From Escherichia coli (GTDB taxonomy: Bacteria > Pseudomonadota > Gammaproteobacteria > Enterobacterales > Enterobacteriaceae): 13,959 bases of DNA. The notes under the pieces are model-generated. The model had not been told where the DNA came from and made no database searches. It worked only from the letters and a program-made list of their open reading frames with translations. The stretch lies in NCBI RefSeq assembly GCF_003334315.1, contig NZ_QOWR01000079.1; one strand, given 5' to 3'. Below, one piece after another: positions 3,540 to 3,923 of the stretch. The first letter of the stretch is position 1; each line of letters begins with the position of its first letter. The position numbers and the translations under genes were made by a program.

Positions 3540-3687
3540 ACTCACTATTTTCTTTTTAAAAAACAACAATTTCTATTGAAATTATTAAACGCATCATAAA
3601 AATCGGCCAAAAAATATCTTGTGCTATTCGCAAAATCTATGGTAACTCTTTAGGCATTCCTTCGAACAAGATGCAAGAAAAGACAAA
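3540..3687 (+). promoter_or_regulatory. ilvLXGMEDA promoter with AT-rich upstream activating region
   Basis: Extremely AT-rich tract with phased A/T runs (ttttctttttaaaaaacaacaatttctattgaaattattaaacgcatcataaaaatcggccaaaaaatatc), followed by candidate -35 ttgtgc (3619-3624) and -10 taactc (3643-3648) at 18-bp spacing. It sits about 30-40 bp upstream of the ilvL ATG. The hexamer assignment is tentative. Confidence 0.5.
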
Positions 3688-3786
3688 ATGACAGCCCTTC
3701 TACGAGTGATTAGCCTGGTCGTGATTAGCGTGGTGGTGATTATTATCCCACCGTGCGGGGCTGCACTTGGACGAGGAAAGGCTTAG
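3688..3786 (+). CDS. ilvL: ilv operon leader peptide (32 aa)
   Basis: Hand translation gives MTALLRVISLVVISVVVIIIPPCGAALGRGKA with a TAG stop. 15 of the 32 codons are Ile, Leu or Val, and the attenuator hairpin lies directly downstream. Confidence 0.92.
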   Translation: MTALLRVISLVVISVVVIIIPPCGAALGRGKA

Positions 3787-3808
3787 AGATCAAGCCTTAA
3801 CGAACTAA

Positions 3809-3842
3809 GACCCCCGCACCGAAAGGTCCGGGGGTTTTTTTT
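3809..3842 (+). terminator. ilv attenuator (leader) terminator
   Basis: GC-rich hairpin cccccg...cggggg (3811-3834) followed by 8 consecutive T, located 25 nt after the ilvL stop. Confidence 0.85.
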
Positions 3843-3872
3843 GACCTTAAAAACATAACCGAGGAGCAGACA

Positions 3873-3923
3873 ATGAATAACAGCACAAAATTCTGTTTCT
3901 CAAGATTCAGGACGGGGAACTAA
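3873..3923 (+). CDS. ilvX: Small protein IlvX (16 aa)
   Basis: ATG at 3873 with a GAGGA Shine-Dalgarno 6 nt upstream. Translation is [16 protein letters not shown] with TAA stop at 3921-3923, two nucleotides before the ilvG ATG. Matches my recollection of the annotated E. coli small ORF; too short to support from sequence statistics alone. Confidence 0.6.

Follow-up and report, generated by a model that had tools for sequence, protein, structure and literature searches.

The ilvLXGMEDA regulatory region of an Escherichia coli strain: an ordinary ilv attenuator and a separately initiated ilvX frame

The ilv regulatory region and its relation to K-12

The region upstream of ilvG in the 13,959-nt stretch of DNA analysed here (the window; E. 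coli, assembly GCF_003334315.1, contig NZ_QOWR01000079.1) contains an upstream activating region (UAS) and promoter, the ilvL leader, an attenuator and, separate from these, the small reading frame ilvX (Table 1). We read it as the ilvLXGMEDA regulatory region of E. coli in its ordinary textbook form, with a probability of about 0.95. From 3366 to 3960 the DNA is 100% identical to E. coli HS30-1, and the region is carried by 5426 of 5426 complete E. coli genomes. The segment 3653-3960 equals that of K-12 MG1655, whose annotation includes ilvL and ilvX, and 273 of 273 nucleotides agree between the inferred transcription start and the ilvG ATG. Rfam RF02744 (Rev39_5p_UTR, a soft-rot Enterobacteriaceae 5' UTR) matches at 3617-3906 with 157.1 bits against a gathering score of 88, over model positions 1-300 of 300. 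The terminator, protector and small hairpin of the model coincide with those described below. The family, however, takes its name from a Pectobacterium transcript and is not identified as the ilv leader, and its model also spans promoter DNA before the inferred start and the first 11 codons of ilvX. The strain has an intact ilvG of 548 aa, in contrast to K-12, whose copy lacks the AT at 4902-4903 (2 bp) and carries a frameshift annotation. Two ORFs at 13380-13909, where the 3' end of the window is divergent, matched no family in an NCBIfam scan.

A sequence-only reading had described a complete attenuation module at 3540-3923, conventionally regulated and departing in nothing from the established mechanism. 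The parts are all present, but the 5' limit is slightly too tight because the AT-rich region and the dyad at 3528-3540 start upstream of 3540. Conventional regulation is borne out by a transcribed leader that equals K-12 base for base, by mutually exclusive helices in folding and by published K-12 data. The attenuator is an already known system, and its RNA part shows no departure from K-12. The same cannot be said of 3540-3660, where six UAS and core-promoter differences from K-12 lie, all of them common natural alleles. That reading made no mention of the Rfam family, of the protector/pause hairpin or of the control of ilvL by GcvB.

Table 1. Features of the ilv regulatory region, in window coordinates
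Feature	Position	Strand	Basis
Dyad TGAA-N5-TTCA	3528..3540	none	Alignment of upstream regions from 30 Enterobacteriaceae loci and K-12
AT-rich upstream activating region	3540..3600	none	Composition, A/T tracts, periodicity, literature, conserved TATAAAAAACAA block
Core promoter	3609..3649	+	Blocks conserved between genera, SNPs, allele frequencies; hexamers inferred
Mini-ORF MQEKTK, six codons, TGA overlapping the ilvL ATG (ATGA)	3671..3691	+	Sequence, comparisons
ilvL, 32-codon leader peptide	3688..3786	+	Translation, NCBIfam NF007744, RefSeq annotation of identical DNA
Protector/pause structure	3694..3761	+	Co-transcriptional fold series, 75-sequence alignment
Antiterminator	3753..3819	+	Nascent-RNA folds, 75-sequence alignment
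Published RNA 3' ends (K-12)	3766 and 3772	+	Term-seq tables of PMC7815308 mapped onto the window
Intrinsic terminator (attenuator)	3807..3842	+	Folding, T8, conservation, laboratory-evolution mutations
ilvX with Shine-Dalgarno	3861..3923	+	Annotation 'peptide IlvX' on identical DNA, conservation, literature
ilvG ribosome-binding site GGGGA (inside the ilvX end) and ATG	3913..3928	+	Sequence, anti-SD pairing, K-12 comparison

Promoter and upstream activating region

The GC content of 3540-3599 is 0.20, a value reached by only 22 of 13,900 60-nt windows, and the minimum over the whole window, 0.15, falls at 3530-3589. The phased A-tracts noticed from the letters are confirmed by a periodicity of ~10.5 bp among the A/T tracts (P about 0.004 against mononucleotide shuffles, which partly tests the presence of tracts because such shuffling destroys them too). 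The TATAAAAAACAA block is kept between genera in the upstream-region alignment. Its position suggests that the AT-rich region is the counterpart of UAS1 and of the IHF target, which is described ~90 bp ahead of the transcription start; relative to the inferred start, the AT-richest segment of the window occupies the interval ~60-125 bp upstream. At ilvPG, work of the Hatfield and Benham laboratories on the K-12 allele describes UAS1, IHF and activation through transfer of superhelical destabilisation (review PMC10783518). The present allele differs at 3552 and 3573, and the IHF site here is a predicted one.

A search of 3500-3660 with the IHF core consensus WATCAANNNNTTR gave no match within one mismatch. 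The best IHF-like core, AAACAACAATTTC at 3561-3573, has two mismatches, and the K-12 base at 3573 would leave one. The candidate IHF element proposed earlier therefore keeps its AT-rich DNA at the expected position but not a near-consensus core in this allele. Natural IHF sites are often degenerate, so the missing consensus weakens the IHF claim without excluding it. The conserved dyad, a palindrome by eye at the upstream edge of the AT-rich region, reads TGAATTTTTTTCA in E. coli and GTGAAATATTTTCA in most other Enterobacteriaceae. To our knowledge, its half-site spacing is unlike the ArgR, Cra, FNR or CRP consensus, and for that reason we assign it no regulator.

The core promoter comprises an UP-like A6 tract (3609-3614), the conserved TCTTGTGC of the -35 region (3617-3624) and the conserved CTATGGTAACTCT of the -10 region (3637-3649), with TATGGT (3638-3643) as the best hexamer in E. 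coli. Transcription would start near 3652-3653. Alongside conservation, we presume the customary placement of the ilv +1, the promoter hexamers and the upstream-promoter assignment. A sigma-70 consensus scan did not call the core promoter at 3609-3649.

Ten differences from K-12 fall within 3366-3960, every one upstream of the transcript. They include four in the core promoter (3623, 3629, 3630 and 3636) and two in the UAS (3552 and 3573), position 3573 being the last base of the best IHF-like core. Such differences raise the possibility that the promoter and UAS alleles of this strain shift ilv expression from that of K-12, and that initiation is not fully conventional. The exact UAS allele, found in only 626 of 5426 genomes, would be in keeping with this. 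The core-promoter allele, however, is common (exact in 2087 of 5426), and at the differing positions it equals E. albertii and Citrobacter; the K-12 type therefore looks derived and the type in the window ancestral. Divergence from K-12 across promoter and UAS (3.15%) also lies within the range of the neighbouring genes (2.3-4.4%). We consider an altered ilv expression rather unlikely on these sequence comparisons.

Leader peptide and 5' untranslated region

ilvL translates to MTALLRVISLVVISVVVIIIPPCGAALGRGKA, 32 sense codons ending at the stop codon 3784-3786. Fifteen of them are branched-chain codons, the same total as in the sequence-only reading: 6 Val, 5 Ile and 4 Leu, all located from codon 4 to codon 27 and including VVVIII at codons 15-20, a run also noted there. 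A review likewise gives 32 aa with 15 branched-chain residues. The peptide matches the NCBIfam equivalog NF007744 with 81.9 bits (cut-off 59), aligned over 1-32 of 32. No recognisable Shine-Dalgarno was found for ilvL (anti-SD pairing energy -0.9 kcal/mol). Ribosome profiling of the identical K-12 sequence shows that ilvL is translated, with ribosome pauses inside it, and the translation expected of the leader is in this way documented by the literature.

The ATG of the mini-ORF is in frame with ilvL in Citrobacter, Enterobacter, Lelliottia and some relatives, where it would lengthen IlvL by six residues, and is absent in other genera. The 5' UTR is A/C-rich around 3671-3691. According to published work, GcvB uses its R1 region to repress an ilvL fusion and acts in this A/C-rich 5' UTR.

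Synonymous divergence (dS) of ilvL is 0.059 versus 1.10 for ilvG in the same genome pairs, ~19-fold lower. Across Enterobacterales the synonymous sites of ilvL hardly change, which suggests that the RNA itself is constrained.

Competing helices in the leader RNA

The leader folds at -69.5 kcal/mol (z-score -5.15), and 0 of 200 shuffles fold as well. Three helices share nucleotides: the terminator (-21.6 kcal/mol), the antiterminator duplex (-19.7 kcal/mol) and the protector (-15.5 kcal/mol). The protector consists of a core hairpin, 3728-3740:3745-3756, further closed by 3694-3698:3757-3761. It competes for 3753-3761, and in folds without an obstructing ribosome it is predicted to tie up the 5' strand of the antiterminator. 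Its pairs are kept at 99.9% in 75 sequences, and 10 of 12 are invariant even at wobble positions. The antiterminator joins GUGCGGGG (3753-3760) to CCCCGCAC (3812-3819) and CUUGG (3766-3770) to CUAAG (3805-3809), and encloses a small hairpin (3778-3784:3792-3798) that carries the ilvL stop codon. Its core can pair in 75 of 75 Enterobacterales leaders.

The GC hairpin and T8 seen in the letters do form a terminator: a 13-bp interrupted stem between 3807 and 3838 (3807-3816:3829-3838 and 3818-3820:3825-3827) with a GAAA loop, and T8 at 3835-3842. A simple terminator pattern scan missed the attenuator on the + strand, which we attribute to the C/C mismatch 3817/3828 that interrupts the stem. The nucleotides 3807-3809 and 3812-3819 of the 5' arm are common to the antiterminator. 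Antiterminator and terminator pairing, 3753-3760:3812-3819 against 3811-3820:3825-3834, thus proved mutually exclusive in the folding check, as had been expected. In the 75 leaders, 96% of alignment cells of the terminator are paired and four of its pairs show compensatory change. Compensatory changes are confined to the small hairpin and the outer terminator pairs, and covariation says little about protector, antiterminator or terminator because these helices are nearly invariant. Recurrent laboratory-evolution mutations at +47/+48 after ilvL correspond to 3833-3834, in the 3' arm of the terminator.

To follow the choice between helices, nascent RNA was folded up to 3824 with a ribosome at each codon. 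With the A site anywhere from codon 1 to codon 17, the core of the antiterminator forms at P >= 0.95. Its pairing disappears in the interval of codons 18-21 at every ribosome reach from 11 to 15 nt, stands at 0 from codons 20-21 on, and is likewise absent when the ribosome has reached the ilvL stop codon. In this model, helix choice depends on the position of the ribosome in ilvL, and the antiterminator would be available at codons 1 to ~19. Equilibrium folding of the full leader under a 30-nt ribosome mask gave a terminator P of 0.85-0.97 at every codon. Because equilibrium folding always retains the terminator, the switch is visible only in a kinetic, co-transcriptional treatment. With a very early stalled or absent ribosome, the nascent minimum free energy (MFE) structure at 3824 is still the antiterminator, by 1.3 kcal/mol. 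Termination of an untranslated leader would therefore rest on the protector forming first.

Published data on the identical K-12 sequence bear on the same switch. RNA-seq density drops 45-fold from ilvL to ilvG. Ribosome stalling at CCA-CCG induces ilvG 3.1-fold, and Ala-Ala codons abolish the induction. The ilvL passages of the Term-seq study PMC7815308 place 3' ends at 3766 and 3772 and list none at the T run. Counted from the base of the hairpin, these ends are 10-11 nt further 3', in a context of G(-10) and C(-1), although they may be decay products. Since ilvL is also among the listed known hairpin-stabilised pause sites, we infer that they fit a hairpin-stabilised RNA polymerase pause in ilvL.

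The proposed course of events is as follows. Transcription would begin just downstream of a weak core promoter (3609-3649), aided by the AT-rich, IHF-targeted activating region at ~3530-3600, and yield a leader RNA of ~190 nt that encodes IlvL. Polymerase and ribosome are probably brought into step by a pause at 3766/3772, ~10 nt beyond the protector, and the helix would then be selected by where the translating ribosome stands. A ribosome slowed at the Leu, Val and Ile codons (4-20) would melt the protector and leave 3753-3760 free to pair with 3812-3819; the terminator would be blocked and polymerase would continue through ilvX and ilvG into the remaining operon genes. A ribosome that reaches the Pro-Pro-Cys region or the stop codon would cover 3753-3770, so that the terminator (3807-3838 with U8) forms and transcription ends. 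If no ribosome is present, the protector (3694-3761) would hold the antiterminator strand, and termination would be favoured.

The ilvX reading frame

The ilvX ORF occupies 3873-3923, with 16 codons and the stop codon TAA at 3921-3923, which is followed by CT and the ilvG ATG at 3926. The frame and its stop 2 nt before ilvG are as previously described. Its inclusion in the attenuation module needs amending: the ORF is real, but it is situated beyond the terminator and plays no role in the switch. ilvX is present only on read-through transcripts and is separately initiated, from a strong Shine-Dalgarno, GAGGAG at 3861-3866, that is kept across loci (mean -7.35 kcal/mol). Its DNA is identical to that of records annotating WP_001387183.1, 'peptide IlvX'. 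Expression of the identical sequence is documented by assay of an ilvX translational fusion, and Hemm et al. (2008, 2010, as cited) treat IlvX as an expressed small peptide. In the literature found, no function of IlvX is reported.

Comparison across families shows a frame with fixed ends. Counted from the ilvG ATG, ilvX occupies precisely -53..-2 in 55 of 63 loci (Morganellaceae and Edwardsiella excluded), 49 with ATG and 6, in Citrobacter, with GTG. The fixed end holds in Enterobacteriaceae, Erwiniaceae, Pectobacteriaceae and Yersiniaceae, with a 1-nt-offset variant in Hafnia. The start codon is ATG or GTG in 50 of 57 unique sequences. Premature stops in the ilvX frame occur in 3 of these 57 against 9.3 +/- 2.2 after column permutation (P 0.0015, which is optimistic because the sequences are related by descent), and stops interrupt the two remaining frames in 53 and 45 of the 57. 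The peptide shows little of this constraint: dN/dS is 0.54 versus 0.026 for ilvG, and differences by codon position are 0.25/0.37/0.35, with the second position most variable and no third-position excess. Frame, length and stop position of ilvX are thus kept in several families while the peptide sequence evolves freely.

One reading of this pattern is that ilvX acts in cis, selection maintaining translation of the 16-codon ORF and leaving its amino-acid sequence largely free. Fixed position, avoidance of stops in this frame only, the strong Shine-Dalgarno and a high dN/dS without third-position excess all argue for it. Possible cis roles are opening of the ilvG start region, ribosome coupling into ilvG and protection of the read-through mRNA. 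On the other side, ilvG has a reasonable Shine-Dalgarno of its own, no different in strength with or without ilvX. The ORF is broken in a few species (L021, L100 and L115) and missing from Morganellaceae and Edwardsiella, and the permutation P shares the bias noted above. A hairpin predicted over the ilvX Shine-Dalgarno (3861-3870:3891-3900, also in the Rfam model) has 85% of its cells paired, and an alternative helix over the ilvG Shine-Dalgarno (UUCUGU:ACGGGG) has 95%, but covariation of the two in the alignment was not above controls. We hold the cis reading as possible, at less than even odds. The more specific proposal, that translated ilvX acts in cis to adjust IlvG synthesis or the fate of the read-through mRNA, as a second checkpoint beyond the attenuator and not as a functional small protein, is somewhat unlikely as it stands.

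Obligatory translational coupling of ilvX and ilvG was considered separately and rejected. It predicts a weaker ilvG Shine-Dalgarno where ilvX is present; species with ilvX and those lacking it are alike in this respect (-6.33 versus -6.48 kcal/mol, P 0.10).

IlvX might instead be a functional small protein that acts in trans, for instance on acetolactate synthase II or a membrane target. Its treatment as an expressed small peptide in the work of Hemm et al. and in RefSeq agrees with this, as does the conservation of Cys8 (43 of 43 unique ORFs), Gly15 (42 of 43) and Lys6 (39 of 43). These residues, however, overlap AUAAAAUUCUGU, in which all three codon positions are conserved, and the ilvG Shine-Dalgarno ACGGGGAA. 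Conserved residues here are conserved nucleotides, and RNA-level constraint therefore explains them equally well. With the dN/dS of 0.54, the variable second codon positions and the lack of a reported function also against it, a role in trans is unlikely. That the frame is incidental, open only through nucleotides kept for RNA structure and the ilvG ribosome-binding site, agrees with conservation without codon periodicity, with the fact that a 16-codon open frame is not rare by chance and with loss of the ORF in several lineages that retain the operon, but is quite unlikely given the joint conservation of start, stop position and strong Shine-Dalgarno, the avoidance of stops in this frame only and the reported expression.

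Discussion

The system described here is that of the K-12 ilvL leader and ilvGMEDA attenuator (Lawther & Hatfield 1980 and Nargang et al. 1980, as cited). It agrees fully with K-12 in peptide, terminator and ilvX; the differences are the ten SNPs upstream of the transcript and the intact ilvG. With the leaders trpL, hisL, leuL, thrL, pheL and ivbL it shares a short ORF of cognate codons, a pause hairpin, exclusive antiterminator and terminator helices and readout of ribosome position. In contrast to these, ilvL is multivalent, responding to three amino acids, and its regulatory codons are scattered over codons 4-20 and not set in one tight run. It also differs in having no recognisable Shine-Dalgarno and in the placement of ilvX between the terminator and the first enzyme gene. 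The 16-aa IlvX of the small-protein set of Hemm et al. is found here without any difference. The cross-species pattern of ilvX, with the frame kept and the peptide free, is an observation added to that set.

The locus is useful mainly as a positive control, since its ilv operon is the standard one of E. coli, with ilvG intact and the attenuator unchanged. The comparison of ilvL with ilvG in synonymous divergence supplies quantitative evidence of RNA-level constraint on the leader. If the K-12 core promoter is derived, as it looks, this matters when promoter data from K-12 are transferred to other strains. The way in which ilvX is conserved makes it a concrete, testable question whether translation of this frame, rather than its peptide, is important.

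Identity of the locus

The window follows the E. coli gene order, running from the end of an rrn operon through hdfR, maoP and yifB to ilvL, ilvX, ilvG, ilvM, ilvE, ilvD, ilvA, then ilvY, ilvC and ppiC. Over 3366-3960 the window matches E. coli HS30-1 at 100% identity, and the two tRNAs of the rrn operon are annotated as tRNA-Asp and tRNA-Trp in that strain's identical record. The same interval is present in 5426 of 5426 complete E. coli genomes, with ilvL, ilvX and ilvG annotated under the match, and the leader RNA (3653-3925) has at least 99% identity in 5396 of them. This is not a look-alike but the E. 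coli ilvL attenuator itself, with its promoter, upstream activating region (UAS) and ilvX, an already known system. Every defining feature of leader-peptide attenuators open to in silico testing was found here; the remaining ones have been documented experimentally on the identical RNA sequence of K-12 MG1655 (PMC8384417).

Translating 3688-3786 yields the 32-codon leader with 15 Ile/Leu/Val codons that the sequence-only reading had described. A review gives the same 32 residues, 15 of them branched-chain (PMC6123439), and the peptide scores 81.9 bits against NCBIfam equivalog NF007744, passing its cut-off of 59. ilvG is intact (548 codons); K-12 is without AT at 4902-4903 and its ilvG carries a frameshift annotation. 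Past ppiC, 13182-13959 diverges from K-12 by 9.9%, far more than the rest of the window; at this site K-12 carries a PemK/MazF-type toxin pseudogene with a frameshift. The ORFs 13380-13655 and 13610-13909 (minus strand) matched no NCBIfam family.

Features of the ilv regulatory region and the rRNA operon end (window positions)
Feature	Position	Strand	Basis	Remarks
rRNA operon 3' end	69-396			5S rRNA 69-184; tRNAs 239-312 and 324-396
Differences from K-12	3476, 3498, 3519, 3522, 3552, 3573, 3623, 3629, 3630, 3636
Conserved block 1	3528-3540		upstream alignment	dyad TGAA-N5-TTCA
Conserved block 2	~3555-3566		upstream alignment	TATAAAAAACAA
Conserved block 3	3609-3614		upstream alignment	A tract adjoining -35 region
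Conserved block 4	3617-3623		upstream alignment	TCTTGTG
Conserved block 5	3637-3649		upstream alignment	CT(A/G)TG(G/A)TAACTCT
ilvL	3688-3786	+	translation	MTALLRVISLVVISVVVIIIPPCGAALGRGKA; 4 Leu, 6 Val, 5 Ile
Protector	3728-3740:3745-3756	+	first in co-transcriptional series	core hairpin; closed by 3694-3698:3757-3761
Antiterminator	3753-3760:3812-3819	+	complementarity	GUGCGGGG with CCCCGCAC (terminator 5' arm)
Antiterminator, second helix	3766-3770:3805-3809	+	complementarity	CUUGG with CUAAG
Small hairpin	3778-3784:3792-3798	+	second in series	contains ilvL stop codon
Terminator	3807-3816:3829-3838 plus 3818-3820:3825-3827	+	last in series	-21.6 kcal/mol, then U8
ilvX	3873-3923	+	translation	TAA, then CT, then ilvG ATG 3926

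Helix choice follows the ribosome in nascent-RNA folds

The leader RNA folds at -69.5 kcal/mol (z = -5.15 against shuffled sequence). It matches Rfam RF02744 'Rev39_5p_UTR' over 3617-3906 with 157 bits (gathering score 88), so that RF02744 and the ilv leader are one element with two names. The family, described as 'Soft rot Enterobacteriaceae Rev 39 5' UTR', corresponds to the ilvL-ilvX leader, on which its name and description are silent.

A co-transcriptional fold series gave the order in which the helices appear (see table). The GC-rich hairpin followed by T8 (3835-3842), read from sequence as the terminator, was readily detected by folding, with a C/C mismatch interrupting its stem; a pattern-based scan called neither the ilv promoter nor a + strand terminator. 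Together the two antiterminator helices are worth -19.7 kcal/mol. Protector and antiterminator contest 3753-3761, and antiterminator and terminator contest 3807-3819 in nascent-RNA folds, so the mutually exclusive pairing proposed for the latter two is confirmed.

RNA ending at 3824, before the terminator 3' arm, was then folded without everything up to the ribosome leading edge, with the reach past the A-site codon taken as 11, 13 or 15 nt. With the A site anywhere in codons 1-17 the antiterminator core has P >= 0.95; it disappears somewhere from codon 18 to codon 21, according to the reach assumed, and does not form at any later codon or at the stop. Ile18-Ile20, where the VVVIII run ends, are therefore the last codons effective in regulation. 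At equilibrium the complete leader prefers the terminator at every ribosome position, and thus the helix decision is kinetic. For RNA ending at 3824 and free of ribosomes, the antiterminated fold beats the protector fold by 1.3 kcal/mol; termination without translation therefore depends on the protector forming first. Multivalent attenuation of the conventional kind is what the analysis recovers, in a leader identical to that of K-12 whose helix choice follows ribosome position in silico. All parts listed in a module called 'complete' are present, but the protector/pause hairpin and control by the sRNA GcvB had been left out. The R1 region of GcvB represses an ilvL fusion and leaves an ilvX fusion unaffected (PMC9299463).

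Published data on K-12 bear on the same RNA. Ribosomes are seen on its ilvL, which answers the proposed ribosome profiling check for the leader, and in normal cells RNA-seq density drops 45-fold between ilvL and ilvG (PMC8384417). Stalling at CCA-CCG (3748-3753) shrinks this drop to 9-fold and raises ilvG 3.1-fold, an effect gone with Ala-Ala codons in their place (PMC8384417). That stalling at codons 21-22 has a partial effect is in line with the residual pairing computed for the terminator 5' arm there (P 0.46, reach 11 nt). Mutations at 'ilvL/ilvX intergenic +47/+48' arose repeatedly in laboratory evolution at 42 degrees C (PMC4166923); these positions correspond to 3833-3834, in the G run of the terminator 3' arm.

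In the part of the published Term-seq tables covered here (PMC7815308), RNA 3' ends lie 78 and 84 nt into ilvL and none lies at the attenuator T run. The two ends map to 3766 and 3772, 10-11 nt past the protector base. Each has a G at -10 and a C at -1; 3772 also has G at +1. Hairpin-stabilised pauses have this geometry and context. ilvL is among the known pause sites of that class (PMC11077087), and the ends, as far as these tables go, fit that pause; they could also be decay intermediates.

ilvL has no recognisable Shine-Dalgarno sequence in 3675-3687 (anti-SD pairing -0.9 kcal/mol; mean -0.34 across 55 species). A six-codon mini-ORF, MQEKTK (3671-3691), ends in a TGA overlapping the ilvL ATG. 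The start of this mini-ORF is in frame with ilvL in Citrobacter, Enterobacter, Lelliottia and relatives, where it would yield a 38-residue IlvL; other genera are without this ATG.

Conservation of the leader

A scan of the genome collection with GTN GTN GTN ATH ATH ATH CCN CC (Val3-Ile3-Pro2 in any codons) returned at least 120 stretches. Among the matches listed, 80 from many Enterobacterales genera had sufficient flank and a true ilvL, then a T run and ilvG. Across the 75 distinct leaders listed, all free wobble positions of GTG GTG GTG ATT ATT ATC CCA CCG TGC GGG are invariant or nearly so. Whole ilvL has a dS of 0.059 versus 1.10 for the first 100 ilvG codons in the same 754 genome pairs, strong evidence, from sequence comparison, for selection on the RNA itself. 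In the same 75 leaders the antiterminator core is pairable in every one, the protector is 99.9% paired and the terminator 96%, with compensatory changes at four terminator pairs and three of the small hairpin. Because the central helices are nearly invariant, covariation statistics are uninformative for them.

Promoter and UAS

The upstream region was described as extremely AT-rich with phased A-tracts, and so it is: nowhere in the window is AT content higher than in 3530-3599 (GC 0.15-0.20), and a GC as low as that of 3540-3599 is seen in only 22 of 13,900 60-nt windows. Its A/T tracts have a period of ~10.5 bp (P ~0.004 versus mononucleotide shuffles, a test that also rewards tract presence alone). 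The region is real, but the 5' limit drawn at 3540 should reach ~3528. Aligning 30 Enterobacteriaceae loci with K-12 gave five conserved blocks. The dyad of the first, at the upstream UAS edge where the yifB and ilv promoters diverge, is kept across Enterobacteriaceae genera.

The window differs from K-12 at 10 positions in 595 nt (3366-3960), all upstream of the transcript; 3637-3960 is identical. That nothing departs from convention thus holds for the RNA, while the upstream DNA does differ, by common alleles. Intergenic divergence (3.15%) is no higher than that of yifB, ilvD, ilvA and ilvY (2.3-4.4%); over the 273 nt of leader RNA there are 0 differences, and ilvG differs by 0.49%. E. coli has two major core-promoter haplotypes: 2087 of 5426 genomes carry the window type (3596-3660, 65 nt) exactly, and ~2227 are of the K-12 type. 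At SNPs 3623, 3629, 3630 and 3636 the window has the E. albertii and Citrobacter state, and K-12 therefore looks derived. An exact copy of the UAS allele (3530-3600, 71 nt, differing from K-12 at 3552 and 3573) occurs in only 626 of 5426.

In K-12, IHF bound in UAS1, ~90 bp upstream of the start, shifts superhelical destabilisation to the -10 region and activates the promoter (PMC10783518). The best IHF-like core here, AAACAACAATTTC, ends at 3573, where C in the window makes two mismatches and the K-12 A would give one. The K-12 hexamer at this spot, TATATT, would presumably suit the -10 of an upstream, non-productive promoter.

ilvX adjoins the attenuator

The 16 codons of ilvX and its stop 2 nt before the ilvG ATG were read correctly. 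The ORF had been placed within the attenuation module; it is present, but lying past the terminator it adjoins the attenuator and has no part in the attenuation decision. In E. coli ECN24 (NZ_CM176598.1; 1 of 5426) the leader match breaks at ~3846, just past the terminator, and resumes elsewhere in the record, which suggests an insertion between attenuator and ilvX.

Across species, the 16-codon frame occupies precisely -53..-2 relative to the ilvG ATG in 49 loci where it starts with ATG and in 6 Citrobacter loci where it starts with GTG. Variants have the start one codon off (L061), the stop lost (L099) or a 1-nt offset (Hafnia, L028); the frame is broken in L021, L100 and L115, and missing from Photorhabdus, Xenorhabdus, Morganella, other Morganellaceae-like loci and Edwardsiella. 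For the ilvX Shine-Dalgarno sequence GAGGAGCAGA, pairing with UCUGUUUCUC within the ORF is predicted (3861-3900; unpaired probability 0.01), a helix also in the RF02744 model. It is paired in 85% of cells in 59 species, with covariation no higher than controls. Predicted helices hiding the ilvX or ilvG ribosome-binding sites are compatible with the alignment and show no significant covariation. Obligatory coupling of ilvG to ilvX translation is unsupported, the ilvG Shine-Dalgarno being equally strong with or without ilvX (P 0.10).

The peptide is weakly conserved (dN/dS 0.54), with differences by codon position of 0.25/0.37/0.35 versus 0.06/0.02/0.50 in ilvG. The reading frame stays open all the same: 3 of 57 unique sequences have a premature stop, versus 9.3 +/- 2.2 after column permutation (P 0.0015); the two alternative frames contain stops in 53 and 45 of the 57. 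The Shine-Dalgarno is strong (GAGGAG, -8.1 kcal/mol in the window; mean -7.35 across species). These comparisons suggest that selection may act on translating the ilvX frame rather than on its product. The role of this translated, sequence-unconstrained frame is the only thread of some interest here.
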